Shown: positions 24,176-50,099, counted from the whole stretch's first letter. The stretch: DNA of 51,283 nt, filler included, from Jimgerdemannia flammicorona (GCA_003990765.1; 2 parts of 2 records of this genome joined end to end with filler, not necessarily neighbours in it), one strand, 5' to 3'. Notes: generated by a model from the sequence alone, not told the origin. Made by a program: numbers and translations.

Positions 24176-24234
<59 letters not shown>

Positions 24235-27560: not shown

Positions 27561-27648
27561 TATATATAGTACTCCTCGGTAACATTCAGGTTACACAACC
27601 CTTTGGCAACACTTTCGACACAGTTTCTGAAGAAAAGCTACTAGTATT

Positions 27649-29679
27649 ATGGTGACCAACAAGCATCCGGAGGTGCATACTGGGTAGGGTGGCCCTGGAG
27701 CGTTTGACTGGCAGCAAGTGGGGAGAGGCCCCGGCCTGGGGGGAAGTATGAGGGGCCTGCTGGCGGGGGGCCGCGGTGGAAGAGGGGGTGGAGCTGGAGG
27801 TCAAGGGTCCGGCAGGGTGAGCTTTGCAGAGAAGGTGAAGGGGGGTCGACAGAGAGCTGGACTGGAGAGCTGGCTGAGAGGGGGGAAGGTACCGGTGGTG
27901 GCTTCCAGGCAGCAACCACTTGGAGGTGCCTCTCTGGAGGGCCATAGGAGTGGAGCTGGGGGAGTAGCGGCTGGGGCGGGGACTGCTGATGGGGGTGTGA
28001 CGGGTGATCTGGAAAAAAATCTAGATGGGACTGCTGATGGTGAGCCGAGCAGTGGGAAGGGCATGAGGCCCGGGGACCTGGCGGATGGTGTAACGGGACT
28101 GGTGGTGGCTCCGTTACTCAAGAAGTCGATCTCGGCATTCGCAGTTACGCTGTGCTTCAGGGGCTTAGCAGTAATGGCAAAAATGGTGTTGGGGCTTATT
28201 GCTAAGCAGGTGGCAGGAGCGGCTTCAGTGAAGTTTCTGAAGGGACTGGAGGGGGTGGAGGTGGGATTTGAGGAGGTGGAACCGCTGGAGGAGGCGCTGA
28301 AGGTTGGGTTAGTGGTTGGGGAGGTGTATGTTCCAATGGCAAGGTGCTTGAAATGGGATCCAAGGGTGGTCCAACTGCTGGTGAAAGGAGTACCCACGGT
28401 GATGGCAATGGAGACAAGGAAGAGAGTGGAGGATGTCATGGCAGAGTATGGCGAGGTAGTGGATATCGGATTCAGGGTCTGGAAAGGGACCGCGCTCAGG
28501 ACTGGGGATGTGGATGTGAGGATTCGGCTAGCTGGGAAAGAGGCTACTGGGAAGATGAGGGACTGGCCTTCGGTGTTGGTCTGGGGGGCCTTTCTATGCA
28601 AGGTGACGTGGGTGAAGGGGAGTAAAGAAGAGGAGGAGGATTTATTGGAAGTGCTGGAGGAGCTGGATGGGGCTGTGGAACGGCGAGCTAAGGCTTGGAA
28701 GACTTTTGAGGAGTCGACGCTTCTGGAGGTGGTGGATGGAAAGAGGATTCGAGTGGACAAGGTGCAGTGGGAAAGGGCTCAAGGACGGAAGAGGCAGAAG
28801 GATTTGCTGGCCAAGCTGGGGGGTGGTCATCAGAAGGATGCGAGCATGAAGATGGGTATAGAAGGGGCCGGAGCGAGTGTCTGGGCTGGTGAGAGGAGTG
28901 GGAATGAAGGGGCAGGGTCCGGAAAGGCTAAGGAGGTGGAGATTAGAGACCTATATGCTGACAGCACCTTGGAGATTTGGGATGCCGGCTGGGAGAACTC
29001 CCCCACCCCTTTCCCTCTAATCAGGCATGGCCCGGCTTCCAGGAACAAGCCTGGGGAGGACGTGACGATGCTGGGAACCCAGCAGGTGAAATTCAGCGTT
29101 CCGGAGGTGTTGGATGGGGACCAAGTGGGGGTAGCAGGGGAGGAGGAACTGGTAGATGTCCCGGAGGTGTGGGATGAGGACACGAGCGCGGGAGCGGACA
29201 CCACAATGCTGGATGGAGGGAGGCCGGCGACCCCGGGTGGTAAGGAGGTGGGGAACCTACTTTGGATGTGCCGGATGATGAATAACCTGGTGGCGGACGA
29301 GCTGGGGGAGGTGGACTTGCATGGGATGAGTGATGAGCACTGGACGAGAATTTTGCAGGGGGAAGGAGTGGTGATGGCGCTGAAGGTGGAAATTCTCGCG
29401 GTGTACCTGGCGGAGGAAGGGTATGAGGTGGATAAGGAGAGGGAGGCAGAGTTGGCAGTGGTCGTGGGGGAGAAGGCTGAATACTGTTGGAACAGGCGTC
29501 ATGGGTTGTAACTTTGGCAGGAGGCTTGCATCGAGTACCGTGAGGAGTTTGAGGAGAAGGCTGATGAGGAGATGAATGAGCTGTTGGCTGGACTGGAGGC
29601 TCAGAGGGCCGAAGAGGAGGAGGTGATGGCTGAACATAATCTGGACACGGCATGGGAGGAGAGGGGCATGGAGCAGTAG
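27649..29679 (+). pseudogene. LINE ORF1 (Gly-rich N-terminus, RRM-like core, acidic helical C-terminus)
   Basis: ATG at 27649 (MVTN..., also in copy 2). Premature stops at ~27685 (CAG in copy 2) and 29509. RRM-like VKGVP...MAEYGEVVDIGFRVWKGTALRTGDVDVRI. Confidence 0.8.
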
Positions 29680-29709
29680 GGATTGATCGAGAACAAACCG
29701 TATTTCATT

Positions 29710-32700
29710 ATGAACAGTACAACCAACATTTTTTCTTTAAACGTGAATGGGCTTAGGGGCACAGCTAGACGCAGGAACATTTTTCTTTGGTTGAAGGGAT
29801 TGGAGGCCGATCTCTTCCTCTTGCAGGACGTCAGGTGCGAGGATGATGCTGATAGGATGGAATGGACTAAGGAATGGGGTGGTATGGCGATTTGGAACAG
29901 CAAGGTTGGGATTCTGGTTCGGAAAGGCAGAGGGGAGATAAAGGATGTGAGGAGCTGGGGGGAGAGACTGGTCTGGGGTGAGTGGATTCGAGCGGGTTGG
30001 GAGCCGGTCACAGTTGGCTCCTGTTATTGCCCTGCAGTACGGGGGGAGCATGTGGAATGGGTGAAAGGATTACTGGAGAGTGGGATACTTGCTGAAGCTG
30101 GGTTGGATATGCATGGAGGAGATTTCAATATGGTTCGGGATGTATGACTGGATAGAACTGATGGAGGACGGGGTGCGGAGAGCAGGAGTGGGGGGTTAGC
30201 GATGTGGGAGGAGGTTGAAAGGCTAGGAGCACTGGTGGATGCTGGTAGGGAGTACTGGGGGGACAGGAGAGTATATATGCATTGGGCTGGAGGTCTGGGG
30301 ACGAGGATTGACTGGATTCTGATGGCCGACTGTTGGGGCCGCGATGTCTGGAAGGTGTTAGAGGTTGAATGGTGCCCGTGGTCGGATCACTGGGGTCTCT
30401 TGGGACAGGGGTTTTTTGGGGGAAGTAGAGATGGGCCTGGACATTGGTGCCTGAATTCCTCCTTGTTGGATGATGAGGTCCAGTGGGAGGAGTGGGCGAA
30501 AGACATTCAGCTGAAGGTGGCGGATTGGCGGCAGGAAGGGGCAGTGATTGGGGTTCAGTGGATGAGGATGAAAGAGATGGCCAGGATGTATTGGAGCGAG
30601 GTTGGCAGAGTGGCTGGGAAGCAGCAAAGGCAGAAAGTACATTGGGCTTCTACTAGGTTGGCTAGACTCCTGGAAGAATGGGCGAGACTGGCTACAGTGG
30701 AGGGAGAAGAGGATTGGAGACTTACAAGGGTGAGGATGGAGGTTGGGGAACTGCAACAGGTGCTGCGGGAAGAGGAAGAGTCAAGGGTGCAGGGCCTGGT
30801 GGCTCGGCTTCGTTGGCAGGGGGTGGAGGAAGGGGAGAGGCCTTCCAAGTTTCTCACAAGGACACTTCGGGTGAGAAGGGTACAACAGCGGTGGGAAGGG
30901 GTACTTGACTCAGATGATGTACTAGTGCATGGTGTACAGGACATCCTTGGAATGCTGAAGGCGCGATGGAGTGGATTGTGGAGTGAGGAGGAGGGTGGGA
31001 CAGATGCTACAGCCATTGACCAAACGTTAGAAGATTGGCACCCACCGAGGGCTGAGGGACTAGGTGATCTGGTGATGCCAGTAAAGGAGGATGAGATCCA
31101 CCAGGTTCTTGCCGCGACAGCCTCAGATACAGCGCCTGGGGAGGATGGCCTCCCCTGGGATTTCTGGAAGCGAATGGTTGGAGTCCCGGGTATATTGGGG
31201 GAGTTGACAGCACTGTGTGACTCTATATTGCAGTCAGGGAGATGGGTGGGAGAGCAAGACCTTGGGCTGGTGATGCTACTCTATAAGAACAAGGGTAGGC
31301 GAGAGGATTGGAGGAACTGACGGCCGATAATGCTGTTAGATATGGATAGGAAGTTGGTGACTAAGGTGGTGGTGGCAAGGCTACAGAAGGTGGCCCAGCA
31401 GATTGTGGGTGTTGAACAGAGGGGCTTCATTGGGGGTCGGCTCATTAGAGATGGCATGGCCTGGGTGCATGGAGTTATCGAAGGTGCTCGAGCCTGTGGA
31501 CTAGATGGGCATCTTGTCTTCTTGGATCAGGAGAAGGCTTATGACCGGGTACGGCGGGTCTGGCTGGTGAAGGTATTGGATAGAATTGGAGTTCCAGCCT
31601 CATTTCGGTCAGTGATGATCAGCCTTCTGGAAAGGAGTAGGGCTGCGCTGGTGTGCAATGGACATCGAGGGGTGGCTTTCCCTCTGGGCAGGGGAGTGCC
31701 CCAGGGGGGACCCACTGTCCCCCATTCTGTATGCTCTTTCTTTGGAACCCCTCATGGACAGGATTCAGCAGAGGATCGTGGGGCTATCTATCTATGGAGT
31801 TGCCTGGAAGGTCGGAGCCTTTGCAGACGACATAGTGGTTGGTCTGGGGGTGACTGTGGATGTCGAGGAGCTCCAGAAGACAGTGGAGTGGTATGAGGCG
31901 AACTCGGGGGCAAAGCTGAATTGGCACAAGTGTGAGACAATGGTGCTGGGCAATGGCTTGGTGGGTGGGGAGGTTATTGGAACAATTGTCCCCACCGGAG
32001 AGGCAGTGCGGTACTTGGGCATCTATCTGTCGGTCTATGGGTCTGTTTTGCCCAGGCTGTAGTGGGAGCAGAGGATTGGAATTTGGGAGGAAGACCTACG
32101 GGGTTGGGGAGTTAGACACTTCTCTCTGGCAGGAAGGATCTCGATTTTGAATGTTTACTGGCTGCCGAAGCTGTGGTATTTGGCCTATCATCTGGACTTC
32201 CCAGCCTGGGTGGTGAAGAGATTGGTAAAGGTGGCCAAGGGATGGATTTGGGCTGGCAGACAGAGCCAGATTGGTTGGGAGACTCTGTCCCTACCGGTGA
32301 CAAGAGGTGGTCTTGGGCTGGTGGACTTCCCCAAAAGACTTCACTGCTTGCGGGCATGGTGGCTGAGGAGGGCGGTGGGGTTGTGTGGAGGGGGCTAGGT
32401 CCCCTTGCTGCAGAAGATATGGGAGGGGAGGACATCACCTAGAGGCTTGACTGGCGATCTTCTTTCATTAGTTGGGCTTCAGAACACTGCGCAACTGAGA
32501 TATAAAGGCTTCTGGTGGGGTATAGCTGAGGGGGCACACCGCATTGGTATTCGTTGGCGAGGGGATGAAGGGGAGAGGGATTGGGGCCCAGCAATGTGGA
32601 GGTGGGATTGTATTCTTCTGGGGGGCATGCCTTTACTGGAGTTCAACATTAGTGATGGCATTGAATGCCAAAGGGGACCAGGCCAGGATCTGTGGCCTAG

Positions 32701-33367
32701 CGGTTGGCAAGGAGTTGGAATTGGTAAGGAGTGGGACTGGCATGGGGTTTGGACCTGGAGTGCCGTGGTGAAAAGTTGGATGCTGCTGAGGTACTGGATA
32801 GTCTGGTGGCGGGTGCTGAGGAGGAATGTGATGCTTAACTTCCGCTCTGGACACCTTGTGGTCAGAGGCTGCTTTGACTGCGAGGAATACCATAATGTAG
32901 GGCAGGAAGGGGGATTGGTACAGACGCCAGAACATTGGCTAGGGGAGTGTGAGGTGTTGGGAGACTTTTGGTGGGCCATTGGGGACCGCTTGGGGGTAAG
33001 GCGTAGGGGGGATGATGTACGGGGGAGGTGGGAGGACCTGAGGGACTGATTGATAGGAGGGGTAGGGGAAGAGTGGATTACGTTAGGCTGGGCATTGGCT
33101 ATTTGGGTAGGGCTGGCCGGTCACTGGCTATTTGTATTTGAGGAGGAGAAGCGACAGGGCTTGGGGAGCAGGTTAGCAAGGTGGCAGTTCCTTATGGAAG
33201 ACACCTTGATGGGATGGTGGCTTGGCTGGGGGCTGCAGGGGGGTCGGAGGCGTCGCTTAGTGGTGAAAATCTGTAGTCAGAGTGGTGGGAGAGTTGGCAT
33301 TGTTGGTGAGAGGGTGGTCTTTGTATGTGAGAAGGTAGGGTGGGGCTCCCCGATGGGGATTGGTTAG
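29710..33367 (+). pseudogene. LINE ORF2: apurinic endonuclease plus reverse transcriptase
   Basis: APE motifs SLNVNGLRG, GGDFN, RIDWIL, SDH. RT motifs APGEDGLP, (W)RPIMLLDMDRKL, DQEKAYDRV, GVPQG/DPLSP, FADD, RYLG. Several TGA/TAG stops and a +1 frameshift in a G run near 31705. Confidence 0.92.
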
Positions 33368-33429
33368 TGGGTGGTTATATTGTATACTTACTCATAGACT
33401 GGTAATAAAGACGGAGTCCAAGAGACTAT

Positions 33430-33460
<31 letters not shown>

Positions 33461-35069
33461 TAAAAAAAAAAAAAAAAAAAAAAAATTATATATAGTACTC
33501 CTTTAAAAATCTCTATAATATCTATAAGATATTTTATTAATTATCTTATAGAGAAGAAAAATATTATTCTAATAAGATAAGTTCAGTATCTTTAGTTCTT
33601 ATAGTAACTCAGATACTTCTGATATAGTTAGCTACCTTGGTTTTAAGCTAAGTATAGTCTTTCTCAGAGAGATAAATAATATCTCAGAAGGTTATTTTTT
33701 TAAAATAAATAAATATATATATTTTTTTCTATTATATAGATATGAGATTTCTTTATTAACTAATATATAACAAATATATAATTCTCATACCATAACAGTA
33801 GCCTCAATCTAATCTACTCTACTTTATTTTCTCAATATATCTCTCTCTCTCATCCTTACTCTCTCAAAAATAAATATATATACTATTAACTACTATGACC
33901 CACTCATGACTCTTCTTATAAATCTCTTCTATTAGGTATCAACAGTGACCTCTCTAATAGCTCCACTCCTTCCACCAGTCAGATAGAATATCCACTATCA
34001 GTCTCTTCTATCTCACTATCTTTTCTTCTAAGAATATCTGCCTCCTATCCTTAAACATATATATAGCCAGTATCTAACCAACCACACCCATACTGCTAAT
34101 ATCCACTCAATAGTGAGTTACTCATTACTAATATATCCAACCAATCACAAAATAAATAATTATTCAGAGTAGATATCAGAATATCTAATAAATATAAAGA
34201 GTCTTCTCAATTTAGTTCTAAGTAATCAGAAGCTTTCTAATGAGATTTTCTTAGTTATTATTACTGACTTCATTATAGAGATAGTGATCAATCTCATAAT
34301 TATACAAAAGAACAAGATATATTTTGCTAATTTTGAGCTTATATATTATAGTATTATAATAGTTAATAAAGTAGCTTAGATCTTCTATAAAGAAGTTGAA
34401 ATATTTAACAATATTTGGATGATAATAAGCTATATTGATGGTCTTGAAGATATGTGCTTTAGAGCTAAGAATTGGAGAAGAGCTGTAGACTATTTAATAG
34501 ATAGAGACTATTGAGATAATATTAATCTAAATAGTTTTTATAGAGATCTTAAATAATAAAAACAAGATTACTAATGATCTGAAGTTCTTGAAAATTTGAA
34601 GATAATACTATTTAGTAGTCACTTTGTCTCATTACTGATAAGACTATATTTAATAGTTATAAAGCTAAGTATCTTTTATTCAAATTCTTGAATAATATTA
34701 TATTAATATATTATAATATATATTTTTATTTAGAAATTAGTATAAATAGTATACTATATTTTATTTTATATTTCTACTATTATGTACTAAGTAACATAGT
34801 ATAACTAGATGATATAAATATTATAGTTATTTATTACTGCAGAAATTATATAAATAATCAGTTAACTAGGAAGAAAAATGGACAGCTAATATCTACTAGA
34901 TAGTAAATATCTACCAGATAGTAAATATCTGCTATATAGTAGATATTTATTATACAGTCAATATCTGCAAATCTATTGTGACATATGCAATCGACAATGG
35001 AGTACCGGTGACTGCTAAGATCAGATGATATAATGATGTGACAATCAAATAGACAGTCTGACCCATTAG

Positions 35070-36170
35070 GTGATCATCCCAAAAGAAGACAAGAAGATCC
35101 GAGCCAAAATGAAGACCACGTTATTTAAGGAACCATACTCCGCCTCAGAGATCGGCACCAAAGAGCCAAGTACCCACCACACAATACCTCCCATTTGCCG
35201 ATCCAACCAGACCTCCCGCCGCTCTATCCCTTTGCCTGGCCCAAAGACCCTGATCTTTGAAGCTATCAAGAAGGCCATCTGGCGCCCAGATACTTCCAAA
35301 CACTTGAACTTCTACACCGAGGACCTTGGACACTTCATCAACTACTGGTATATAATGACCCAATAGCTCAAAGATACTACCAAATGAATGACCCTCTGGC
35401 ATGACTACGAAATCAGACACCACCTTTGCAATGAGACTCAAGAAGATGACTGGGAAGGCCTTATTACCAAATTGATAACCACTAGCCAGCTAATCAAGAG
35501 AGCCCTCCATGTCCACCAAATCTTCTGCCATATTCCCTAGGCCATAGCATACTTGCAAGGAGTAATGGCTGGCAGCCTCTCCCACCTTTCAACCGAAGAT
35601 GCTGACTGGATAGAATCTGAAGTAGCCAACTCTATTGGCAGCAACCACGTCGCTGTAGGAAGCCAACAAACTGAACCTACTCAGCCAGGTTTCCACACCA
35701 CCCCACTCTGAGACAACCATCAAGGTCACCTAATGAGTCTTATGGAGATATTTGAAGGACTACCCATTACTATAGAAGTACCCATTGGAGCTACCCCAAC
35801 CACCCACCACCCTGCCAGCCACAATTCACATCTCATCATTTGGGAACCGAATTAAGAAGAAGCCCAAGAGGTCCCTGTCTTTGAAGAGGAAGCCCAAGAA
35901 CTCCAAGACCCTGCCCCTGAAGAAACCCCCTCTGAGACTGAAACTGATGAGTCTTCAGAAGAAGAAGAGGAGCAACAGAGAGTCTACCAGTCCTCTGTCC
36001 ACATTCAAGCTGTTCAAGGGTTGGAGAATGTTGTTGAAGATGACTGGCCACTTGTCTACCCCCTCACCTCTTGGCTGGCACTTCCCCCTTTTGAGGAGAG
36101 GTATGACGAAGAAGAAATCTTAACCCAGCAAGATTTGTCTGCCGTGGATGAAGGGTACTATTTCCTCTAG
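35070..36170 (+). pseudogene. LTR (U3)-encoded protein of unknown function, ~360 codons with 5 premature stops
   Basis: A single frame reads IFEAIKKAIW...HFINYWYIM...LWHDYEIRHHLC...RALHVHQIFCHIP*AIAYLQGV...DNHQGHLMSLMEIFEG followed by an acidic tail, and aligns by eye to the ORF in the Gypsy LTRs. Confidence 0.75.
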
Positions 36171-36218
36171 AAGTACCACCTGTCAGCCATGAGAATTGTG
36201 CAGCCTTCATGTCAGTAA

Positions 36219-36430
36219 GTCAGCAAGTCTGAATCCAGTGTTGCTACCCAGCATAACTGTTTCCAGCATTGCTATCCAGTGCAACTGTTTTCAGTATTTT
36301 GTCAGCAAGTCCAAATCCAGCGTTACTACCCAGCACAACCATTTCCAGCATTGCTATCCAGTGCCACCATTTTCAGTGTTTTGTCAGCAAGTCCGAATCC
36401 AGTGTTGTTACCCTCCACAACCATTTCTGG
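36219..36430. repeat. 82-bp tandem repeat (~2.5 copies) within the solo LTR
   Basis: GTCAGCAAGTCYRAATCCAG starts at 36219, 36301 and 36383. Confidence 0.85.
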
Positions 36431-37784
36431 CAACAATCATTGTATCCATATCTGTCTGTGTCAGCAAGTCAGCCCTTCACATCATGCAAGCCAATAGCAT
36501 AGCAAAGTCTACCACAATGTAGTATACCTTAGCCCCCCCCCATAGCCAGCAAATTTGTATAAATAACCCATAACCTTAGAGTGAATAAACCTCAGTCAGT
36601 TTGTGTTTAAAAGTAAAAAGGATTACAGAGAAACCACTGCCTCCAAGAGACCAGATAAATTCTGAGAACAAGATAACTAGAGCAACGATCACTCGAGGTT
36701 TGAGTTAAAGAATTTTCTCTTGCCATGGAAAGAAAACATTACCCAACTACTGCCATTCGACTGCCATTCAAGACCCAAGACCCAGCCAAGGAATTCAAGA
36801 CCACGACTACTGCACATTCAGACCACCATTCAGATCATGCATTCGACCGCCATTCGAGATTCAAGACCCAGAAACCCAAGGATACCCTGCCAAAGGATAC
36901 TAGAGTGCCAAAGACCGACCCGCCAGCCTACACAAACAACCGCCCAGAACCTTTCAAGTTAACAAGTCAAGATGGACGAGCGAGCCGTCAACCTCCATTT
37001 TTCTGACCTACTGTGCCATGAACCGCTTAAAGCCAAGCCCGTCATCGCTGCATAAATTCAAGTTCGCTGCCAAGTTAATCGCTGCCAGGAAACACCCTTT
37101 TCCACTGGATATTGAGCCATTGAACAATCGAACGACCTCCCTATCGAACAATCGAAGTCCCGCTATTATCAATTATCACATGTTTTGAACGACCTGATCA
37201 CATGACCAACGACCTGCAACCATCGCAAATGCACTCAGACATATACCGCGCGCTCCACCAAGTAGCACATTGAGCCGTGCTTGAAGCAACTAGGGATACA
37301 AACTGAATGCCACACTATATATAGCTAGATAGCAACCAGATAGCAACTAACTTATATAAAATACTCCAGAGATAAGAGTAAATAAACCTCAGTCTGAAAA
37401 TCAAAAGTAAAAGCCAATTGTCTAGTAGACTTCTGTCAAATATTTAAATATTCTTCCTCAATCTGCTACAGGCTGCTTATATTTCTTTCATCTTACTATC
37501 TTCTGTCTAACTATATTAATAAATCAGTATCTTTTTATCTATCTTCTTAGTAATGCTATATTCAGATACCAGTTCCCTCTACTACTACCAATTATCTGGA
37601 ATCTGCCTCTCATCTCTACACTCCAGTGATCAGACCAGAGATATTATTGTACCTCTGCAGTATCTAGTATATTACTCCAGTATTTAGCAACTAGCACTCA
37701 GTCAATTCTCATCTCCACTAGTCTATCTCTAACAGTATACTATTTAGAGAAGAGCTCTAACTCATCTCTACTTTATAGCTAATG

Positions 37785-37786
<2 letters not shown>

Positions 37787-37853
<67 letters not shown>

Positions 37854-40800
37854 GTCACTTGGACTCTGCCATTTATTACCCTTCTATTAATAAGTTTACA
37901 GTATACCCTCCCACTATCTGATCCCCATAGGGGTGCCACTCCCTCCACCTACACAAACAAAGACCACTTTCTCACCTGCAACTCCAACCCTCCCCCCACT
38001 CTGCCTACAGATTTTCTCTACCAAATAATGTCTTCAACCCCCCTGCAACCCCCAGCCAAGCCACCATCCTGTCAAGGTGTCTTCCATAAGGCTACACCAC
38101 CTCAGCAGCCTGATCTCTGAGCCAAGTCTCCTTCTATCCTCAAAGACAAATAATCAGTGACTGGTCAGCCCCACCCAAATGGCCAAAGCCCAGCCTAATG
38201 TCAGCCATTCCTTCCCCACCCCCCCCTCCAATCTATCTCTTAAATCCTCCCATCACCCCCACATACCAGCTCCCCTACACACTACCCTCAAATGATCCCC
38301 AATGTTCTGCCAAAAGATACTAAGTATCTCACACTCTTCTAGCCAATGTTCAGGCATCTGCACATATCCCCCTTCTTGCTCTACATTATAACACTCTTCA
38401 CAGTTAAAGCAATCTCCCTCAATAAAGGTGACCTGAGTGAAAGTTGAGCATGACATTCTGCCTCAGCATATGCCACCAGACCACTCAGTACTTCAGCAGT
38501 AGCCACCTCCTCACCTTGGCACTCTAGACCCAAATGCTTTACCAGTCCCACTTCTTGCTGATTCCTACTCTTTGCCAACTGCTAGGCCACAGGTCCTGGC
38601 CTGGTTCCCATTGGTATTCAATCCCATCACCAATATCAAACTCAATTAAGGGAATGCTGCCCAGTAACACTTGGTCCCATCTCCATATTGCTGGGTCCCA
38701 AGCTACCTTCCCTTCATTCCCCTACCACCTAATTCCAATGCAGTGCACCCCCTCTGCCACTCCCTACCAGAAACCTTTGTATTACAATTGTTCAGTGTTC
38801 TGAAGGCCCACAAGTGCTAGGAGATCGCCAGTCGAACCCCAGGGAGAGGACCTCATCTCCCAGACTTTCTGCAATAGGGGGACCCAACCACCCCCTCTCA
38901 ACTCCACCACTCTCTTTAGCCACCATGCTCTCAAGCAGTGCAGCCTTTTAGGAAAGTCAACCAGCCCAAGTCCCCGACTTGCCACTGGTAAGGATAAGAC
39001 CTCCCAGCTGATCTGACTCCACCTTCCAGCCCAGATCCACCCCTTGGCCAGCTTCATCAATCACTTCACCACCTAAGCTGAGAAGTCCAGATGATAAGCC
39101 AGATACCACAACTTCGGCAGCCAATAGACATTCAGAATCAAAACACATCCTGCCAGAGACAATTGGCAGCCCCCCCAACTCCACAAGGCCTCCTCCCAGA
39201 TACCAACCCACTGCTCCCACCAAAGTCTGGGCAGAACCGACCCATATACTGACAGATAGATACCCAAGTACCATACTACCTCACCAGCAGGGACAATGGT
39301 ACCAATAATCTCCCCTCCCACCAGACCATTGCCTAACACCATCATTTCACACTTATGCCAATTAAGCCTAGCCCCAGAGTTCACCTCATACCACTCTACT
39401 GTTTCCTTAAGCTTCTCAACATCCACAATTGATCCCAGACCAACCACTATGTCATCTGCAAATACCCCTACTTTTAACCCAATACCAAAGATAGAGAGCG
39501 CCACTATCTTCTGCCTGATTCTGTCCATTAAGGGCTCCAGAGAAAGGGCATACAAAATGGGGGACAGTGGGTCCCCCTAGGGCACCCCTCTACCTAGGGG
39601 AAATGCTACCCCTCTGTGTCCATTACATATGAGAGCAGCCCTGCTTCCTTCCAGTAGGCTGACCATGGCTATTCTGAACTGGTGCAGGACCCCAATCCTG
39701 TCCAATACTTTCACCAGCCAGATCCATCACACTCAGTCATAAGCCTTCTCCTGGTCCAGAAAGACCAGATGCCCATCCAGTCCACTGGCTCATGCCTCTG
39801 CAATAACTCCATGAACTCATGCTGTGCTATCCCTGATGAGCCAGCCTCCCACAAAGCCCCTCTGCTCATCACCCAAGACTTGCTGGGCCATCTTTTGCAA
39901 CCTTGCAACCACCACCTTAGTAACCAACTTTCCATTCATATTCAGTAGCCTAATCAGCCTCCAGTTCTTCCAGTCCTCTCGCCTTCCTTTGTTCTTATAA
40001 AGCAATGTCACCAGCCCCAGATCCTGTTCTCCCACTCATCTCCCTATCTGTAGAATCCAATCACACAGTGCTGTCATCTCTCCCAGTACTCCAGGGACTC
40101 CCACCATCTTTTTCCAGAAGTCCCAGAGCAGACCATCCTCTCCAGGCACCATATCCAAGGTTGTCTCAGCAAGAACCTGGTGGATCTCCTCCTCTTGCAC
40201 TGGCAGTACTAAGTCACCCAGCCCATCTGCTTATATAGGGTGCTAATCTTTCAATGCTTGGTCAATGTCCTCAATATCTGCCCCACCCTCCTCCTCACTC
40301 CACAATTCACTCCAATGCTTCTTTAATGATCTAAGAATGTCTTGTACACTATGCACCAATATACCATCAGCATTAAGCACCCCCTCCTATCTTTGTTGCA
40401 CCCTTCTTGCCTGAAGGGCTCTTGTGAGAAAATTTGAGGGCCACTCTCCTTCCTCCAACCCCTGCCAATGAAGCCATGCCACCAGACCCTAGACCCTTGC
40501 CTCTTCCTCATTCCACAGCACCTGTTGTAGTTCAACTACCTCTATTCTTACCCTTATCAATCTCCAGTCCTCCCCCCCCTCCAACATCACCAGTCTTGCC
40601 CAGTCCTCCAAGAGTCTAGACAGTCTACTAGATGCCCACCACACCCACCACCTCCTCTGTTTCCCAGCCTCCTTACCAGCCTCACTCCAGAAGGTCCTGG
40701 CCATCTCTTTCATCCTCATCTACCAAATACCAACTGAGGCACCTTCCTGCCTCCAGTACTCCACTTGCAGTTGAATATCTTCAGCTCACTCATCCCACCG

Positions 40801-43713
40801 GATCTGATCATCTAGTAAGGAGGAATTGAGGTGCCAATGTCCAGGCCCATCCCCACTCTCCCCAAAATACCCCTGCCCTAAAAGCCCTCAATGATCCAAC
40901 CAAGGATACCATTCCACCTCCAGTGACTTCCAAACATCCAAGCCCCAGCAGCTAGCTGTCAGAATCCAATCAATTCTCATCCCCAGGCCCCCAGCCCAGT
41001 GCATGTACACCCTCCTATCTCCCCAACATTCTCTACCCACATCCACTAGAGCACTCAGTCTTTCCACTTCCTCCCATACTACCAGTCCTCCACTCTGACC
41101 CTCAGCTCCTCATCCTCCATCAGTTCTATCTCTCAATATGTCTCAGACCATATTGAAGTCCCCACCAAGCATATCCACCCCAACCTCTGCAAGAACTCCA
41201 CTCTCCTGTAGGCCCTTCACCCAATTCACATGCTCACCCCATACCGCAGGGCAGTAACAGGAGCTCACTGTGACTAGCTCCCAACCTGTACATATCCACT
41301 CTCCCCAGACCAATCTATCCCCCCAGCTCTATATATCCCTTATCTCCCCTCTGCCTTTCCTCACTAGAATCCCAACCTTGCCCTTCCAGACTGCCTCACC
41401 TCTCCACTCCTTCATCCATTTCAGTCTATCTAAGTCATCCTCACATCTGACATCCTACAAGAGAAAGAGATTGGCCTCCAATCTCTTCAGCTAAGTAAAA
41501 ATGTTCTTACATCAATAAGTACCCTGTAACCCATTCACATTCAAAGAAAAAATATTGGTTGTACTATTCATAGTGAAGAATGTTGTGTTATCAAGCTTTC
41601 TCTACTGCTCCATATTCATCTTCTCCTGTGCCAAGTCCAGATTATGTTCTATGGTCACTGCCTCCTCTTCAGCCCTCTGAGCCTCCAGTCCAGTCAACAG
41701 CTCATTCATCTCCCCATCTGCCTTCTCCTTGAATTCCTCTCAGTACTCTAGGCAGACTTTCTATCAGAGCTACAGTCTATGGTACTTGGTCCAGCAGTAT
41801 TCAGCCCTCTCTCCCACAACTCCCACCATCTCTGCCTCCTGCTCCTTATCTACCTCATAGCCCTCCTCCTCCAGATACACTATAAGAATTTCTGCCTTCA
41901 ATGCCATCACCACCCCCTCCCCCTGCAGTATCCTTGCCCAATGCTCATCACTCATTACCCTCAAATCCACCTCTCCCAGCTCCTCGGCCACCAGGTTGTT
42001 CATCATCCTGCACATCCAAAGTAGGTTCCCCACCTTCTTTCCTCCAGGGGTCACCAGCCTCCCACCATCTAGCATTGTGGTATCAGCCCCAGCACTCGCA
42101 GCCTTGTCCCATTCCTCTGAGACTTCCACCAGTTCCTCCTCACTGACTGCTACCATCTGTCCCCCTTGTGCTACCTCCAGAACTCCAAATTGCACTCGCT
42201 GGGCCCCCCACATTAGCACATCCTCCACCACACTGCTTTGGGAAGCTGGGCCCCACCTGATAAGAGGAGTAGGAGTAGGGGAGTTCTCCCACATCTCATC
42301 CCAAACCTCCAGCATACCATCTATATATGGGTCCTTGCTAGTTGCCTCCCTGTTCTTGCCCATCCCCTTTCCAGCACTCCCACTTCCCTTGCCAGTCCAG
42401 ACACTTGCTTTGGCTCCCCCTGTATCCACCATCCTACTCATATCCTTCTGAGGCCCACTCTTCATCTTCACCAGCAGTTTCCTCTGTCTCCTACATCTCT
42501 GATCTCATTCCCACTGCTCCTTGCTCACTCGAATCTGCTTCCCATCTACTACCTCCAAGTGCATCACCTCCTCAAAGGCCCTCCAAGCCTTCACCCACTG
42601 TTCCACTGTACCACTCAAGTCTTCCAGCACTTCCAATAGGTCCTCTTCCTCCTCCTCACTCCCCTTCACCCTCATCACCTTACACACGATTGCCCCCCAA
42701 ACCATACCGAAAGGCCAGTCCCTTGCCTTCCCAGTGGCTTCCTTCCCTGCCAGCTGAATCCTCACATCCACATTCCCAGTCCTGAGTGAGGTCCCCTTCC
42801 AGACTCTGAATCCAATATCCAATACCTCTCCATACTCTGTCATGATCTCCTCAACTCTCTTTCTTGTCTCCATCACCATCACCATAGGCACCCCTTTCAC
42901 CAGCAGTTGGACCACTCTGGGATCCCATTTCAGGCATTGTGCCATCAGAACACACACCTCCCCAACTATTAATCCAATCTTCAATGCTTCCTCCAAAGGC
43001 TCAGTCTCCTCAAAGCCCACCTCTACTTCCTCCAGGCCCTTCAAAAACTTTATGGATGCTGCTCCAGCCACCTGCTTAGCAATTAGCCCCAGTATCATTT
43101 TCACCATCACTGCTAGGCCCCAGAAGCACAGTGTCACCACAAATGCTGAGATTGATTTCTTGAGTAATGGTGCTACCACTAGACCTGTCACACTATCTAC
43201 CAAATCTCCTTGTCTCCTAAGCCCTAGTTGCTCAGCCACACCATCCACAGTCACATCTGGATTTTTTTCCAGATTAGCAGTCCTGTCTCCATCAGCCATC
43301 ACACCCCCCCCCCAGCCACTATACCTCTAGTCCCACTGCCCTCTCTGCCAAGGGCTACTCCCCTATGTACTGTCGCCTTCTCTGTTTCCTTGCCTTTCCT
43401 CAACCAACCCTCCAGCCCCAATGTCTGCCTTCTCCCCTTCACTGTCTTAGCAAAGCTCACCCTCCCAGATCTCTATCCTCCACTACTGCCTCCTTCCCTT
43501 CTGCATCCACCTGCCAGCAGCCCCCTCATACCTCCCCCCAGGCCAGGGCCTCTCCCCACATACTGCCAATTGAACATGCTCAGGCCACCCTGCCCAGTAT
43601 GCACCTCAGATTGCCTGTTAGTTACCATGTTGCTAGTCTCTTTTCTCCAAAAACGATATTGTAGTTGCTTTCCAAAAGTTGTGTAACCTGAGAGATACCA
43701 GAGAGAGATGCTG
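37787..43713 (-). mobile_element. Full-length LINE family A, copy 2 (more decayed)
   Basis: Poly(T) at 37787-37850, ORF1 and ORF2 fragments collinear with copy 1 (e.g. YALSLEPLMDRIR...FADD; LLKKSISAF), and a 15-bp TSD TTTATAGCTAATGTC at 37772-37786 and 43714-43728. Confidence 0.95.
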
Positions 43714-43724
43714 TTTATAGCTAA

Positions 43725-45196
43725 TGTCATGTAGTGGTCACTGAGTCCTTCAAATATGCCAGATTCTCTTCAAGATATATCTCTTAGACTAACTCAAGTT
43801 TTTTATAAGTAAGTTCTTATTGGAGTGCCTTCCCAAGGTCTTATAGTCCTCAAACATCTTTATCTTTAACTGTCTTGTTATCTCTTATATTGCTTGCAAG
43901 AAAGTGTGTATATTGTACTAAGAAGACTGACTTTATTTCAGAGGAAATAAGAGGGGTATTTATACAAAATATAATTTAATGGTTGCTAAGATATAAAGCT
44001 AAATATAAATTCCAATAACTAAAACTACTAAGTTCCAGGGTCAGTACTGATGGTTGTACAGGTTCAGGATACTGGTATAATTCAGTATCACATCAGAATA
44101 CTGGTGCTGGAACAATTCTGCATCACCTCAGAATGCCAGTGCTGGTATTATCCAGTGTAATAAGGGACTTAGAGCAGAATGTTCAAGACCATGGGGGCTT
44201 CATCCTCATCATCAGAGGTTGGGATATCTTCAAAGGAGATGAGGTCCATGAACATTTTGTCAAGATCACATAGGTTGTATAGGATGATATCATTGCCAAT
44301 GATGTCATTACATTTGGCAGTAGTAGGAATAAGGAGATCTGGAGCTCTCCAGTCTATGAGATTCTCTTCCACAAAATAGGGGACAAATGTGGGATCTTGG
44401 AAAGGTTTAACCTGGATGCTTGGGCCTTGGAATACTGAGATTAATCCTTATAAGAATTGATCTGAGTTGTCCTGGAGGATGGAGTGCCAGAAGTCTTCTA
44501 CTTCATCACTATTGAGGGTGATAGTGGACTGGGCTTCTGTAGCCACTCTGGCTTCTAGTGCATTGATATGGTGGGATGACAGATCTCTGAAATCTGAGAC
44601 TCTAACATACTCCAAGTTGGGGATCAACTATGGTGCATGCCTGAAGATCTGATGGATCTTCTTAGCTGTCCTCATTTCACATATATCCATGAGAGTGGCA
44701 TCTTGTAGCTCTTGAGTGCTGGCCTGTAGAAACTCCCAGCAGAGGAGGTTTCCTATTTTGTACTTCTGCCATATTTGGAGGCATTCAGTGGCAATAGTGA
44801 TCCTTGTTTCCATTTCATGGTAGTAGAGAATATAATGATAAGGGTCACCAGTACCCAGGTTGACACTAAGAGTCCTTCTTGAGTGAGTCCTCATAGCTCT
44901 TCTGATGTCTTGGAACATCCTTTCTTCAACCGAGGTACCTTAGTGGTTCCTTGACCTTGAGGTTTGGTGGACAGTAGACATTTTGTTTGTAGTGAGTCTT
45001 GTTGGTTACTATTACTGTGGTTCCTTGATCCTTCTTTTATATTCCTCAAGATGCTTATACTGTAGTCACAATGACTCATAGTTGATCATCATTGCTCATC
45101 TCATATGCCATATGGTCTTCTTGTGCTCTGATCTGGTGGCTTGCAAGGAAAGGCTGTCTCCTATACTGATGTCATCATTCTGAGGTCACTGTTACA
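43725..45196 (-). repeat. 3' LTR (~1,472 bp)
   Basis: Minus-strand termini TGTAAC...ATGACA. TATA-like and AATAAA signals at ~43930-43965. Matches 48982-50099. Confidence 0.85.
44169..44918 (-). pseudogene. LTR (U3)-encoded protein, 3' LTR copy
   Basis: MFQDIRRAM...YHYILYYHEM...IWQKYKIGNLLC...TAKKIHQIFRHAP* continues in frame to ...EDEAPMVLNILL, with a few stops. Confidence 0.75.
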
Positions 45197-45559
45197 TCTT
45201 CTTCCTGAATAAGGATCTTCCTGAGCATCCTTATTCATTGATCCAGTCTTGAAAAATTTGCTGATCCCATAACCTCTGGCAAGGGGTCAAAAAGTGATAT
45301 TTATGGGCTGATATCTTTCCTTTGTGTTTTGGCATAATGGTGAAGGGTTGCTCCCTTCATATAGAGCAAGGGCCTGATTCTGATCTTGACTAATCAGTTG
45401 ATGGTTTGAACTCCTCAGACTTCGAAAGTCTCATGGATGAGTAGTTACCAGTTAGAGAATGGTCCAGACAGATAGCCTGCTGGTTATGGGACATAATGTT
45501 ACAATTCACAGACTAGAACCTCATGGACAATCATCATATTTTGCTTCTCTTATATAGGT

Positions 45560-47600
45560 TCATGGTACTTCTTGAGTCTGTTCCTGTGTACTATAGTAGA
45601 CAGTATGGTCCCTGAGATTTTTCTAAGCCAGAAGGTGGTTCCCTTGATATCTTGTATGTAGAAGGGTCCTTCTCATTTGGGCTCCAGTTTTCGCAACCAT
45701 GAGACTTCTACCATATTTTGATACAGTAGAACCTTTTCACTGATTTAGATGGGTTCTAGGGTCTTATAATTCTTTTCCACATTCTTTTTTATCAGCACTT
45801 GTGACTTAGTGATGTAATCTTCAGCCTTCTTTCTGATTTGGTGTAGTCTCTGGATTTCTGCATCAATCTATCTCCAAGTTAGGTCTAGATTTGTGACTGA
45901 GATTCCATCAGAATCTTCTTCTCCAAAGAGCAGCTCCTTTGGGGTAAAGTGTGTGCTCTGTGACCATATGTCTTATAGAACAGAGAGGGTGGTTGAGAGA
46001 TAGTTATCCCAATTCTCATATATCTCTGAGATCTTCACTAGGATGTTCTTGAGGGTCTTATTGGTTCTCTCTATCTGTCCATTTCCTTGAGGGTGGTACA
46101 CAGTGGTCTTGATGTGCTGGATCTTATATTTCTGATATATTATCTCATGGAATCCATTGACAAATTCTGTGCCATAGTCTGTTGTGATTTGCTTCAGTGT
46201 CTTATAGTGGCAGATGATTTCTTGGTGCAGGAAGTCAGTTATAGAGAGGGCATTGGCCTCTTGCAATGCTCCTGCCTCTATCTATTTGGTGAAGAGGTCT
46301 ATAATAACTATAATATAGTGGTTTCCTGATAGTGTTACTGGTAGTGGCCCAATGATATCCATCACAATGTGGTAGAAGGAGATAGGCTCGATTCTTGATG
46401 ACCCAGGTACCTGGTCTTGCTGATCTTGTTTTTGTTTTTGGTACTTGTCACATCCTTTGACAAATTGGTACAGGTCTTCTTCCATTTTGGGCCACCACAT
46501 AGTTCTTCTTACTTTGTCATATGTATTGATTCCTCCTAAGTATCCTTGCTCATGTACTTTCTTTATTACTTGATACTTCTTATGTTTGGATATTACTAGC
46601 TTTTCTCCTTTTCTGAGTATAGTGTTGTCTAGTTCAAACTATTTCTAAGTCTGGTTGATGATGGTGATTATCCAGGGTTTGAGATGGTTGGACATCTTCT
46701 GCTGTCCAAGATAACTGATTAATCCATAGTATAGCTCCTTATTCATATTGAATAGTCTTGATGAGGATGTTTCAGGGTATCCTTGAGAGTGTATCAGTAT
46801 TGGTATTGGTCTTTTCTGAGTGGTACTTGATAGTATAGTCATACTCTTGCAACCTGTAGATCCATCTGGCATATATTCCTTTGGGGTTCAGAGTGTGGAA
46901 TAGCCAGGCAAGAGCAGAGTGGTCTGTTTGAATAGTGAAGTATTTCCTGACTAGGTAGTAGTGGAACTTGTCTATTGCCCAAACTACTGCTAAGCATTCA
47001 AGCTTGCATGACTCATAGTTCTGTTCTGCTCTATGGGTATCTTGGCTTGCATAGGAGATGACATATTCATGTCCATCTTTCTTCTGAGCTAGGACTGCTC
47101 CAAGTTCTATAGTACTTACATCTGTCTGCAGGATGAATTCTAGGTTCCAGTCTGGTCTTCTGAGGATAGGTACTTGGGTCAACTTGGTCTTGAGTTCATT
47201 GAAGGTTTCTTAGCACTCCTTGGTCCATTCAAATTTGGTTTCCTTCTTCAGTAGCTTGTAGATAGGTGCTGTAATGTTGAAATATCCTTTGATGAATCTT
47301 CTGTAGTAGCTGGTCAGTCCAAGGATGACATGGATTTCTGTGGTTGTTCTGAGTCTCAGGTAGGCTGCAATAGCCTCAATCTTTATGGGGTCTGTGTGGA
47401 TTCCAGTCTGGTTGATGAGGTGTCCTAGGTAGGTGATTTCTTGAGCTACAAACTTGTATTTCTTGGGCTTGATGTAGAGGCTATACTCCTTGAGCTTCTT
47501 GAGGGCTAGCTGTATGTGATTGATATGTTCAAATACAGTGTTGCTGAAGATGATCATATCATCAACATAGACAAAGAGCTATTTTTCAATCTCATTGCTG
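45560..47600 (-). pseudogene. pol: pol remnant: RT C-half, RNase H, integrase
   Basis: VYVDDMIIFS, YLGH, YYRRFIKG; RNase H LQTDVS...ECLAVVWAI...TDHSAL...DTLSR; zinc-finger region WWPKM...VKGCDK; core DIIGPLP, TDYGTEF, YHPQGNGQIERTNKTLK; GPF motif. Confidence 0.9.
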
Positions 47601-47619
47601 AAGAGCTGTCTGAAGGCAA

Positions 47620-48861
47620 GGACTTTGGCTAGCTGTCCAAAGGTAGTATTGATCTTCTGTTTCTTGAGGTCCTTGTAGATGTCATACTGGTGGATCTTGG
47701 CCTTGTGCAGCTTCTTTCCTTCTTGCTTTCACTTTCTCCTGAGACTGGAGTAGTGCCTTCAATAATTTGGCAGACAGCTTCATCTAACTCCATGTCTTGA
47801 TCAATTTCCTTGGCTTGAGTCTTGCTTTAAATAGTGACAGCTGGGGTCTTCTTTGGTCTTCCAACTGGCTTGCTGTTGCTCTTCTTGTCATAGGGCTTGG
47901 ACCAGGTTCTGGTACCTTCAGTAGCAGAGTAGAATTCAAGCTTCTCATAGTATTCTTCATCATCAGTATCACCAATCTCCTCGATGACTACTGCATTGAT
48001 TTGTTCTCTGGTTCTGCTACCATTACATGGTTGGGCTTTGCATCTTGTTTCAGTCATGCAACTCTTTGCATAGTGGCCTTCTTCTCTACATCTAAAGTAT
48101 GTGATATTGCATTCTTCTGTAGCAGCTGCAAATCTCTGCACTGGTCTCCTGTTGGTGCTTTGGACTTCTCTAACAACATCACCAAGATGTGCAGTCATCT
48201 TGACAAACTGCTTGGCAAGTTCCTCCACTGGGTCAGCTTTGGCTGTCTTGGGGATAGGTGGGGTTGGTTGTCTGTTTACAACTGTGGTAGGTATGATACT
48301 AGTTGGCTTTGATGGCTCCATCTTGATGCTGGTTATTTTCTCTATTGAGTGTTTGGCAGGGTGTCTGGCAGTCCAATATCTCTGTGCAAAGACCACTTTC
48401 TGATCAAGGGTCAGTGCAGCTGGGGTAGACTGGATTGCTAGGGCAATTTCAGGGTAAACTCCTTTGAGGAAAGTTGAATCCACTATTTGTTCCTTGAGGC
48501 AATCATCATAGCCAGCCAAGACAATCTAGTAGCAGATTCAGGTATAGAATGAGTTGAGATCTTCACTAAATCTCTGGCAGATAGTATTGAGTTAATCCTT
48601 GAGAGCTTGCTTGATCTCTTCAGTATAATATATTGTTCTGAAGAAGGCCTTCATATTGGCAAGTTTGGCTGCACCAGCATCAGCAATGGTGGCTACATTG
48701 AACTTGTCTCCAGCAGATCCTCTGAGGCTGACTGGTAGAAGAGCCAATTGAGCATCCACACTAAGGGCTTGTATGGCAGTGAATTGTTCAAAGTCTTCAA
48801 TGAAGATCAGAATTGACTCTTCAGTAGTATATCTATAGAATGTGGAGGGATATATTTTCAT
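47620..48861 (-). pseudogene. gag: gag remnant with degenerate zinc knuckle
   Basis: FIEDFEQF...LRGSA, FLKGVYPEI, and (C)FRCREEGHYAKSC knuckle, followed by the pre-protease-like YDIYKDL...TTFGQL segment. Confidence 0.8.
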
Positions 48862-48981
48862 CTTGTTTTGAATTCTTGCAGGGGTGACTCTTGTAGTTAG
48901 AGTAGTTGTTGTGGGAGTTGTTCATTTTTCAGCTTGAAAGTGAGGGATTTATCTTGAATCACCAGCCAATGGGCACCAAGT

Positions 48982-50099
48982 TGTTATGTAGTGGTCACTG
49001 AGTCCTTCAAATATGCCAGATTCTCTTCAAGGTGTATCTCTTAGATTAACTCAAGTTTTTTATAAGTAAGTTCTTATTGGAGTACCTTCCCAAGATCTTA
49101 TAGTCCTCAAACTTCTTTATCTTTAACTGTCTTATTATCTCTTAGATTGCTTATAAGGAAGTGTGTGTATTGTACTGAGAAGACTGACTTTATTTCAGAG
49201 GAAATAAGAGGAGTATTTATACAAAATATAATTCAATAGTTACAAAGATATAAAGCTAAATATAAATTCCAATAACTAAAACTACTAAGTTCCAGGATCG
49301 GTACTGATGGTTGTATAGGTTCAGGATACTGGTATAATTTAGTGTCATATCAGAATACTGGTGCTGGAACAATTCTGTGTCACCTCAGAATGCCAGTGCT
49401 GGCATTATCCAGTGTAACAAGAGACTTAGAGCAGAATGTTCAAGATCATGGGGGCTTCATCCTCATCATCAGAGGTCAGGATATCTTCAAAGGAGATGTG
49501 GTCTATGAACATTTCATCAAGATTACATAGGTCATGTGGGACGATGTCATTGCTGATGATATCATCATGTTCAGCAGCAGTAGGAATAAGGATATCTGGA
49601 GCTCTCCAGTCTATGAGGTTCTCTTCCACAAAATAGGAGACAAATGTAGGGTCTTGGAGAGGTCTAACCCAGATGCTTGGGCCTTGGAATACTGAGATCA
49701 ATTCTTGCAGGAATTGGTCTGGATTGTCCTGGAGGATGAGGTGCCAGAAGTCTTCTACTTCATCACTATTGAGGGTGATAGTGGACTGGGATTCTGTAGT
49801 CACCCTGGCTTCTAGTGCATTAATATGGCAGGATGACAGATCTCTGAAATCTGAGACTCTAATATACTCTAAGTTGGGGATCAACCATGGTGCATGCCTG
49901 AAGATCTGATAGATCTTCTTAGCTGTCCTTGTTTTGCATATATCCATAGGAGTGGTATCTTGTAGCTCTTGAGTACTGGCCTGTGGGAACTCCTGGCAAA
50001 GGAGGTTTCCTATTTTGTACTCCTGCCACATTTGGAGGCATTCGGTGGCAATGGTGATCCTTGTTTCTATTTCATAGTAGTAGAGAATATAATGATAAG
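48982..50099 (-). repeat. 5' LTR (truncated at the LINE B insertion), containing the 201-codon open stretch 49426..50031 of the LTR-encoded protein
   Basis: Collinear with 43725-44842 up to AATATAATGATAAG, after which it switches to unrelated sequence. Confidence 0.85.

Follow-up and report, generated by a model that had tools for sequence, protein, structure and literature searches.

A candidate accessory protein gene in the U3 region of long terminal repeats of two diverged families in Jimgerdemannia flammicorona

In a 51,283-nucleotide stretch of DNA from Jimgerdemannia flammicorona (GCA_003990765.1), which is called the window here, two families of long terminal repeats (LTRs) carry related open reading frames (ORFs) on their sense strands. 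One family is represented by a solo LTR (34977-37314, +) and the other by the LTRs of a decayed Ty3/Gypsy element (43725-50099, -). Judged from sequence comparison, the ORF is a real protein gene under selection at the protein level, and it appears to lie wholly inside U3 of the LTR, in families whose LTRs have no detectable similarity at the DNA level. We propose that a lineage of LTR retrotransposons keeps an accessory gene inside U3, expressed from its own promoter and encoding a trans-acting regulator; this model as a whole is given about an even chance of being correct. A first-pass annotation of the window had pointed to three sense-strand ORFs, one in the solo LTR and one in each Gypsy LTR, and all three were found at the positions it claimed.

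A protein conserved between two LTR families

The products of the solo-LTR and Gypsy-LTR ORFs were aligned by blastp with a score of 56.6 bits (E 7e-14), with 48 of 177 positions identical (27%) and 84 of 177 positive. The motifs that the first-pass annotation had read as collinear fall in this 177-residue alignment. In a control in which the Gypsy-LTR protein was shuffled 500 times, 255 shuffles gave any reported match and the best of them reached 22.3 bits. At the DNA level, blastn (word size 9, E <= 1e-3) detected no similarity between the two LTRs, and a local alignment of the two ORFs scored 16 against a shuffle maximum of 17; both agree with the earlier remark that the families share no obvious DNA similarity. 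A frame test gave a score of 147 (z 18.5) when ORF frame was compared with ORF frame (0/0), whereas the remaining eight sense frame pairs gave z values of at most 0.7. The in-register antisense frame gave z 6.0, which is the expected weak echo. Similarity that is restricted to a single frame and has no counterpart in the DNA is similarity of proteins, and thus the trace of long purifying selection. The identity by codon position in the core, 0.41/0.56/0.35, is consistent with this, although the figure is partly circular because the alignment was built on the protein. Both ends of the ORF, including the N-terminus (MP..), are also conserved across the families.

The copies in the window have decayed to different degrees. 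In the 3' LTR of the Gypsy element, the ORF covers 44169..44981 (-), with 271 codons from ATG 44981 to TAA 44171-44169 and in-frame stops at 44942, 44630, and 44450. Its N-terminus, MSTVHQTSRSRNH*GTSVEERMFQD, agrees with that of the intact relative P0006, MPAARQTSRSRNHQGPSVQERMFQD. The first-pass annotation had started this ORF at 44918, from where two stops are met; the true conserved start is farther upstream, at ATG 44981, and the number of stops becomes three. The solo-LTR ORF covers 35184..36170 (+), is interrupted by five in-frame stops (TAG, TGA, TAG, TGA, TAA), and its frame ends with TAG 36168-36170. Alignment with the relative P0010 places its conserved start at codon 35184, which replaces the start proposed earlier; this codon is ATA in the window copy and ATG (M) in P0010. 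Another in-frame ATG is present at 35109, upstream of the conserved start codon, and 35109-36170 (+) is one single frame that contains the five stops. The copy in the 5' LTR of the Gypsy element (50097-49426, -) is open, but its N-terminal part is missing because the sequence is cut off at 50099. A third ORF relic was detected at 34188..34475 (-) by tblastn with the solo-LTR ORF (63.2 bits, E 1.5e-13, 36% identity over 96 residues), and the DNA around it is heavily AT-mutated, with a GC content of about 24%.

Each of the eight in-frame stops in the two long window copies is aligned with Q, R, or W of intact relatives and is one transition away from such a codon. Stops placed opposite Q, R, and W codons identify the window copies as hypermutated pseudogenes of a real gene. 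By this pattern the window copies of the ORF are dead, and repeat hypermutation of the C-to-T and G-to-A type made the stops from Q, R, and W codons.

Intact relatives are available in protein databases. Word-indexed searches returned six relatives of the Gypsy-LTR protein (63-75% identity) and two of the solo-LTR protein (75-76%); all eight are encoded on contigs of 0.8-1.6 kb, and two are labelled "hypothetical protein" by their source. The intact relative P0010, with 325 aa, is 75% identical to the solo-LTR ORF. An exhaustive profile search of 1.84 billion representatives gave only 12 proteins at E <= 1e-3. These include a third family (P0012 and P0013, with 40-46% identity to P0006) and more distant members (P0015, P0016, P0017, P0019, and P0020). 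The longest of the 12 matches has 342 aa, and no fused form was seen among them. Intact full-length members are P0006 (271 aa), P0010 (325 aa), and P0013 (342 aa). All three begin with MP followed by a short stretch rich in S, T, and R, and the core motifs are common to all; QTSR is shared by P0006 and P0010. A search of metagenome contigs for the DNA of the relatives yielded 115 pattern matches, of which tblastn confirmed none.

The structures of P0006 and P0010 were predicted with AlphaFold from a 16-sequence alignment. The mean predicted local distance difference test (pLDDT) value is 70.7 for P0006, with 97 residues at 90 or above, and 65.9 for P0010, with 77 such residues. Both models have the same order of helices, namely one short helix, one of about 40 residues, and then five or six short ones, and in both the C-terminal third is disordered. 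The protein has a basic N-terminus, with 6-7 K+R in the first 30 residues, and an acidic tail: the last 60 residues of P0004, P0006, and P0010 contain 13-19 D+E versus 3-4 K+R, with interspersed F, W, L, and I. The composition of this tail, a hydrophobic core followed by S/D/E, may resemble that of phospho-regulated SUMO-interaction motifs. The first-pass annotation had proposed a selected protein with a helical core and an acidic tail. This proposal is borne out by the similarity in one frame, the conserved ends, the intact relatives, and the two concordant AlphaFold models.

Several searches addressed the identity of the fold. With three proteins and E <= 1, Pfam-A gave no family at or above its cut-off, and the best match was ATG5_HBR with 15.4 bits against a cut-off of 21.3. 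A profile search of PDB gave no match at E <= 10. In a tblastn search, 17 family members had no match in the gag/pol region of the element or in the long interspersed nuclear elements (LINEs) of the window. The first-pass annotation had considered that the domain could be a fragment of gag, env, or a host gene, and no such origin was found by Pfam, by tblastn against gag/pol and LINEs, or by the PDB sequence search. Foldseek gave no match at E <= 1e-3 against PDB (best 1.2) or against BFVD (best 0.093). VIA-align of the P0006 or P0010 model against 48,161 chains gave none at Z >= 5, and the best feature score in ESM Atlas was 0.83, below the lead level of 0.9. A homodimer prediction for residues 15-215 of P0006 returned a score of 0.00 and "no answer", which is no evidence either way.

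One structural lead came from a single model. The P0006 model was matched to helix-turn-helix proteins of the ParB type, including VirB (3vwb_A, Z 4.0, root-mean-square deviation 4.0, 76 residues aligned), SopB (3mkw_B, Z 4.0), ParB (1zx4_A, Z 3.5), and KorB (8qa8_A, Z 3.1), with all scores below the noise level of the tool for helical models. VirB, SopB, ParB, and KorB are absent from the 50 matches listed for the P0010 model, whose best match (Z 4.3) is also below the noise level. The ParB/SopB-like lead of the first model was thus not seen again among the matches listed for the second.

Location of the ORF within the LTR

The solo LTR (34977..37314, +) is 2338 bp long and has the ends TGTGACA...TGCCACA, which form an inverted repeat with a single transition between its arms. 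A copy of CTAT borders the unit on either side (34973-34976 and 37315-37318). In the whole 51-kb window, the 11-nt combination TGYCACA+CTAT occurs only at 37308 and 43186, and a sharp jump in GC content coincides with the LTR start at 34977. A short CCAGATAG(C/T)AA motif was read by eye in both flanks. The conserved start codon of the ORF is located 207 nt inside this unit. Because the inverted ends and the 4-bp CTAT duplication enclose it, the solo-LTR ORF lies truly within an LTR. The first-pass annotation had called the solo LTR Ty3/Gypsy-like; it stands as an LTR, and as it is without an internal region, its class rests only on the ORF shared with the Gypsy element.

Other elements can be placed around the ORF of the solo LTR. 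A TATA-like motif, TATTTAA (35122..35128, +), is found 62 nt upstream of the conserved start and is, as a motif, a candidate promoter of the ORF. Between the ORF stop and the TATA of the LTR there are three tandem 82-nt repeats (family D2; 36219..36464, +), with 87% and 61% identity to the reference copy, and their position suggests an enhancer. The main TATA of the solo LTR, TGTATAAATAA (36556-36566, +), together with AATAAA at 36584-36589, marks the region of the U3/R boundary. An LTR-like piece (37319-37790, +) adjoins the solo LTR and has its own TATA (37353-37363) and AATAAA (37381-37386). Over 51 nt, it matches the TATA/AATAAA region of the solo LTR with 73% identity, and it is probably an R/U5 piece of an older related LTR that served as the insertion target of the solo LTR's element.

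The Ty3/Gypsy element at 43725-50099 (-) has the hallmarks of an LTR retrotransposon: direct LTRs, ACA ends, and sites resembling a primer binding site and a polypurine tract. Its 3' LTR (43725..45196, -) is complete with 1472 bp, starts with TGTAACAG and ends with ...CATGACA, with the start taken from a purine tract followed by TG. The 5' LTR (48982..50099, -) is truncated at its 5' side to 1118 bp and has a TATA at 49223-49213 and AATAAA at 49194-49189 besides its ORF copy. The description of two 1.47-kb LTRs in the first-pass annotation thus applies to the 3' LTR only. The LTR pair is identical at 1017 of 1118 positions (91%) in an ungapped alignment. The main TATA of the 3' LTR is TGTATAAATAC (43966-43956, -), with AATAAA at 43937-43932. 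A putative primer binding site, TTGGTGCCCATTGG (48966..48979, -), begins 2 nt past the ...ACA end of the 5' LTR.

The internal region (45207..48981, -) is decayed and encodes gag with a CCHC knuckle, the C-terminal part of reverse transcriptase (YVDD), RNase H, and integrase (H2C2 + rve). Pfam identified RVT_1 (1.7e-10, profile positions 142-203 of 205), RT_RNaseH_2 (1e-31), Integrase_H2C2 (1.1e-12), and rve (4.1e-8). The order reverse transcriptase - RNase H - integrase that is typical of Ty3/Gypsy is present on the minus strand (RVT_1, RT_RNaseH_2/RT_RNaseH, Integrase_H2C2, rve). The frame of pol stops at 45552-45550, and a non-coding spacer of about 340 nt extends from pol to the LTR. The internal region is short (3.8 kb), and neither a protease nor the N-terminal two thirds of reverse transcriptase were detected in it by Pfam; the copy probably carries an internal deletion besides its point mutations.

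Directly 5' of the 3' LTR start there is a sequence resembling a polypurine tract, AGGAAGAAGA (45197..45206, -). Twenty purine runs of at least 9 nt were found and five of these are followed by TG; AGGAAGAAGA is one of the five and is suggestive, not unique. If the LTR starts at 45196, the ORF start codon is 215 nt inside the Gypsy LTR, a distance nearly equal to the 207 nt of the solo LTR. A purine tract and TG located about 210 nt upstream of the start codon argue that the Gypsy ORF, too, is inside its LTR. The question raised in the first-pass annotation, on which side of the polypurine tract the ORF starts, would be answered for the tract chosen here: the ORF starts downstream of AGGAAGAAGA. 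The TATA-like sequence TATAAAAG (45034..45041, -) is located 60 nt upstream of ATG 44981 and is, by its motif, a candidate promoter of the ORF. By eye, the two LTRs had looked similar over their first ~70 nt; 153 of 1000 shuffles reached the observed score, and this similarity was dropped as not significant.

In all copies, the main TATA (TGTATAAATA.) and AATAAA follow the stop codon of the ORF by 200-380 nt. A main TATA and AATAAA downstream of the stop codon place the ORF in U3, and the earlier statement that it lies upstream of these signals, in sense orientation, holds for every copy. Purine runs of at least 9 nt are absent from the interval that separates the ORF stop from the main TATA, and this speaks against a short LTR beginning downstream of the ORF. 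Both Gypsy LTRs and the solo LTR contain the ORF, which thus differs from an internal additional ORF (aORF), as such ORFs are located outside the LTRs.

Public sequencing runs that match the stretch are five partial DNA runs from four studies (soil metagenomes and one coded organism), and four runs were compared. In soil-metagenome contigs, the depth of the ORF bins is like that of the rest of the LTR, and in run X1 its ratio to the depth of the internal bins is about 1.6-1.9; this ratio is a weak hint, since the depth of contigs does not measure copy number. Both LTR families and the LINE appear in the runs as multi-copy short contigs that differ mostly by transitions, and the contigs of the four runs gave no clean LTR boundary. 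Contigs of runs X2, X4, and X5 leave the window sequence at ~45000 (-), just upstream of the ORF start. The alternative sequence upstream of this point is common to the three runs and was absent from the window when searched for; it may represent a subfamily in which the 5' part of U3 is of another kind, or it may reflect another junction.

Possible expression and role, and competing explanations

In the proposed model, the gene-carrying lineage, of which the Ty3/Gypsy element would be one member in the window, uses a layout common to both families. The LTR start (TGT.ACA) is followed by ~210 nt, the start codon (MP...), and an ORF of 271-330 codons, and then by 200-380 nt, the main TATA, AATAAA, and U5. 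Since the gene is inside the LTR, there are two copies per full element and one per solo LTR. A second promoter within U3, TATAAAAG or TATTTAA, would be located about 60 nt upstream of the start codon (60 nt in the Gypsy family and 62 nt in the solo family). In neither family does an ATG occur between the TATA-like motif and the start codon, and the other upstream ATGs precede the motif. The transcript of such a promoter would be short and monocistronic and would end at the poly(A) signal of the same LTR, which would make each LTR a self-contained gene.

The product would be a regulator with a short basic N-terminus, a compact helical core without a known counterpart in fold, and an acidic, hydrophobic-rich tail resembling an activation domain. 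It would raise transcription of the LTR, or shield copies of the element from host repeat silencing. The role of regulator is favoured because the N-terminus is basic, the core is compact, and the acidic tail contains many hydrophobic residues. Taken alone, the trans-acting role is tentative and well short of even chances, and computation favours neither of its two forms, a transactivator or an anti-silencing factor. Still more doubtful is the further step that each LTR is a complete gene and that solo LTRs, which arise when LTRs recombine with each other, stay in the genome as expressed trans-acting copies of a regulator with a new fold.

Several results weigh against the proposed model. The searches of Pfam, PDB, Foldseek, BFVD, VIA-align, and ESM Atlas gave no match of fold, domain, or motif for any function, and there are no RNA runs among those that match the stretch. 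TATA-like motifs are common in sequence of this kind, and two of them at -60 are weak evidence. When the opening ~210 nt of both LTRs were compared as DNA, 34 of 1000 shuffles reached the score of the best local match, which is not significant. The evidence for where the Gypsy LTR starts is a purine tract and TG, and the 5' LTR is truncated inside the ORF; an alternative tract at 44927-44918, followed by TGTTCC, would put the first 21 codons upstream of the LTR. Some database members, such as P0014 and P0018, are fragments or mutated copies, and protein databases contain called ORFs only, so that the "intact relatives" are an ascertained sample.

The same gene in the same location could be expressed in another way, from a spliced or subgenomic mRNA that starts at the main LTR promoter and is 3'-coterminal with the genomic RNA. 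The copies in the 5' LTR and the solo LTR would then be silent passengers. We regard this as possible but fairly unlikely. It fits the fact that the ORF is the last one in the genomic RNA, downstream of the pol stop (45552-45550), the non-coding spacer of ~340 nt, and the purine tract; sag, nef, and bel of retroviruses have the same 3'-most position. However, no joint between a leader and the ORF is present among the 15 joints listed of 42 in the DNA contigs, and a conserved TATA-like position without an intervening ATG fits a promoter of the ORF's own at least equally. The location itself could also be misread. The ORF would then be an internal, env-like gene between pol and a short true LTR, the copy at 50097-49426 would be part of a truncated tandem element, and the "solo LTR" would be a 5'-truncated element. 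Such an arrangement could be hidden by the 5' LTR being cut inside the ORF, where the true start is not visible, and it would agree with the second purine tract and TG at 44927-44918 and with the divergence of contigs from three runs at ~45000 into a common alternative sequence. Against it, the solo unit has CTAT flanks, its initial TGTGACA precedes the start codon by 207 nt, and the inverted TGCCACA forms its other end, which is unexpected of random truncation; in addition, a purine tract of at least 9 nt is lacking between the ORF stop and the main TATA, and in both families the start codon is nearly equally far from the LTR start. An internal gene is therefore considered very unlikely.

Other explanations concern the gene rather than its place or expression. 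The ORF could be useless cargo, that is, a captured fragment of a host or foreign gene decaying in U3, or a gene beneficial to the host that rides on LTRs. All three window copies are pseudogenes, and a family with 12 matches at E <= 1e-3 in 1.84 billion representatives is very small and patchy, as would be expected of cargo. Yet position, orientation, start, and end of the ORF have been kept in LTR families whose DNA is unalignable, and a layout that is kept while the LTR DNA diverges indicates long-lasting selection during residence in the LTR. Moreover, the 12 matches, of at most 342 aa, include no homologue of greater length outside transposable elements, Pfam gave no domain, and the decay of the ORF matches that of the whole element, in which 95 of the 101 differences between the LTRs are transitions and the ratio of observed to expected CpG (CpG o/e) is 0.02-0.07. 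Cargo is for these reasons judged improbable, although less so than an internal gene. Finally, the open frames and their similarity might be due to chance or be a by-product of conserved regulatory DNA, with no gene at all. This is contradicted by a z of 18.5 in one frame only without DNA similarity, by 56.6 bits compared with 22.3 for the best shuffle, by intact relatives of 271-342 aa, and by a confident and concordant AlphaFold core, and it is hardly credible.

Genomic surroundings, comparison with known systems, and significance

On its right-hand side, the window consists of nested, decayed retroelements, in the order LINE, AT-rich relic, solo LTR, LTR-like piece, LINE, and Gypsy element. 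The first LINE-like element (27580-33486, +) has a poly(A) tail at ~33430-33486, and the second (~37790-43700, -) has the reverse transcriptase motif FADD and a poly(T) at ~37782-37860. The LINE copies have a GC skew of up to +/-0.5 and CpG o/e of 0.03-0.57, and Pfam gave no family for two long LINE ORFs tested (607 and 390 aa). In the elements, CpG o/e is 0.02-0.07, compared to about 1.1 in the genes at 1-22000. Two regions, 23000-27500 and 33487-34976, have 19-29% GC and CpG o/e of 0-0.34, and resemble repeats in which mutation has gone much further than in the elements next to them; the latter region carries the third ORF relic.

The gene-rich half of the window contains sequences of another kind. 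At 845-8680 (-) there are two intron-free frames of 907 and 1688 aa, which may be one gene; the second has a URGCP-like large GTPase domain at its end (4.8e-37), and no Pfam family was found for the 907-aa frame. A protein with a caspase domain (Peptidase_C14, 2.5e-15) is encoded at 11094-12248 (+) and an ORF with a protein kinase domain is located at 16489-17514 (-), both in DNA with a CpG o/e of ~1.1. Genes that are compact and poor in introns, together with the hypermutation of repeats and the matches in soil metagenomes, would fit a soil fungus.

Extra genes in LTR retrotransposons are rare and the described ones are internal, and genes in U3 are known from a few retroviruses. The sag gene of mouse mammary tumour virus (MMTV) encodes a superantigen, a membrane glycoprotein, in U3 of the LTR. 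Like the ORF described here, sag is a complete sense ORF in U3 that is duplicated in the provirus, is 3'-most in the genomic RNA, and requires something besides the genomic mRNA for its expression. In contrast to sag, the ORF in the window belongs to an LTR retrotransposon of a non-animal soil eukaryote, has no match at or above cut-off to any Pfam family, viral ones included, and is predicted to encode a soluble helical protein with an acidic tail.

The nef genes of human and simian immunodeficiency viruses (HIV/SIV) and the tas/bel genes of foamy viruses are 3' accessory genes that start upstream of the polypurine tract and overlap U3. Tas of foamy viruses is a transactivator that binds DNA, has an acidic activation domain, and is expressed from an internal promoter of its own. 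These are also 3'-terminal accessory or regulatory genes of a retroelement, and Tas is used as the working model for the LTR ORF. They differ in that they merely overlap U3, whereas here the whole ORF appears to be inside the LTR, and in that no similarity of sequence or fold to them was found (BFVD gave none at E <= 1e-3 and the PDB searches nothing clear).

The aORFs of plants and rotifers, such as ORF0 of Retrosat2/RIRE, are extra lineage-specific ORFs of Ty3/Gypsy elements whose function is unknown; they evolve fast and are conserved within lineages, in which they resemble the LTR ORF. In contrast, the aORFs described belong to the internal region, where they occupy either the segment from the 5' LTR to gag or that from pol to the 3' LTR, and the ORF in the window is inside the LTR and survives in solo LTRs. 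For Retrosat2, the passage retrieved places ORF0 internally, upstream of gag-pol (PMC3485330). A term look-up returned no passage that places an ORF in the LTR from the plant aORF review (PMC7264820) or the rotifer paper (PMC5408684). In Candida albicans Tca5, the gag-pol ORF may start inside the LTR, according to the passage found (PMC4139406). Coding sequence overlaps the LTR of a fungal retrotransposon in that case as well, but it is the gag-pol start that reaches back into the 5' LTR and not a separate U3 gene. In the full-text literature searched, which mostly leaves out subscription journals, no separate protein gene inside the LTR of a retrotransposon was described.

An LTR-borne gene with an orphan fold would be a new mode of carrying an accessory gene, as it would be doubled in each element and kept in each solo LTR. 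It also has a practical side for annotation, because such ORFs are called "hypothetical proteins" in genomes and LTR finders treat LTRs as non-coding. If the more doubtful reading, with each LTR as a complete and expressed gene, is true, the regulator would switch on the LTRs of its family or blunt the methylation and hypermutation of repeats by the host, and the retrotransposon would in effect spread its own helper gene through the genome in many places. The LTR ORF would be a concrete candidate for how elements cope with a genome that methylates and hypermutates its repeats.

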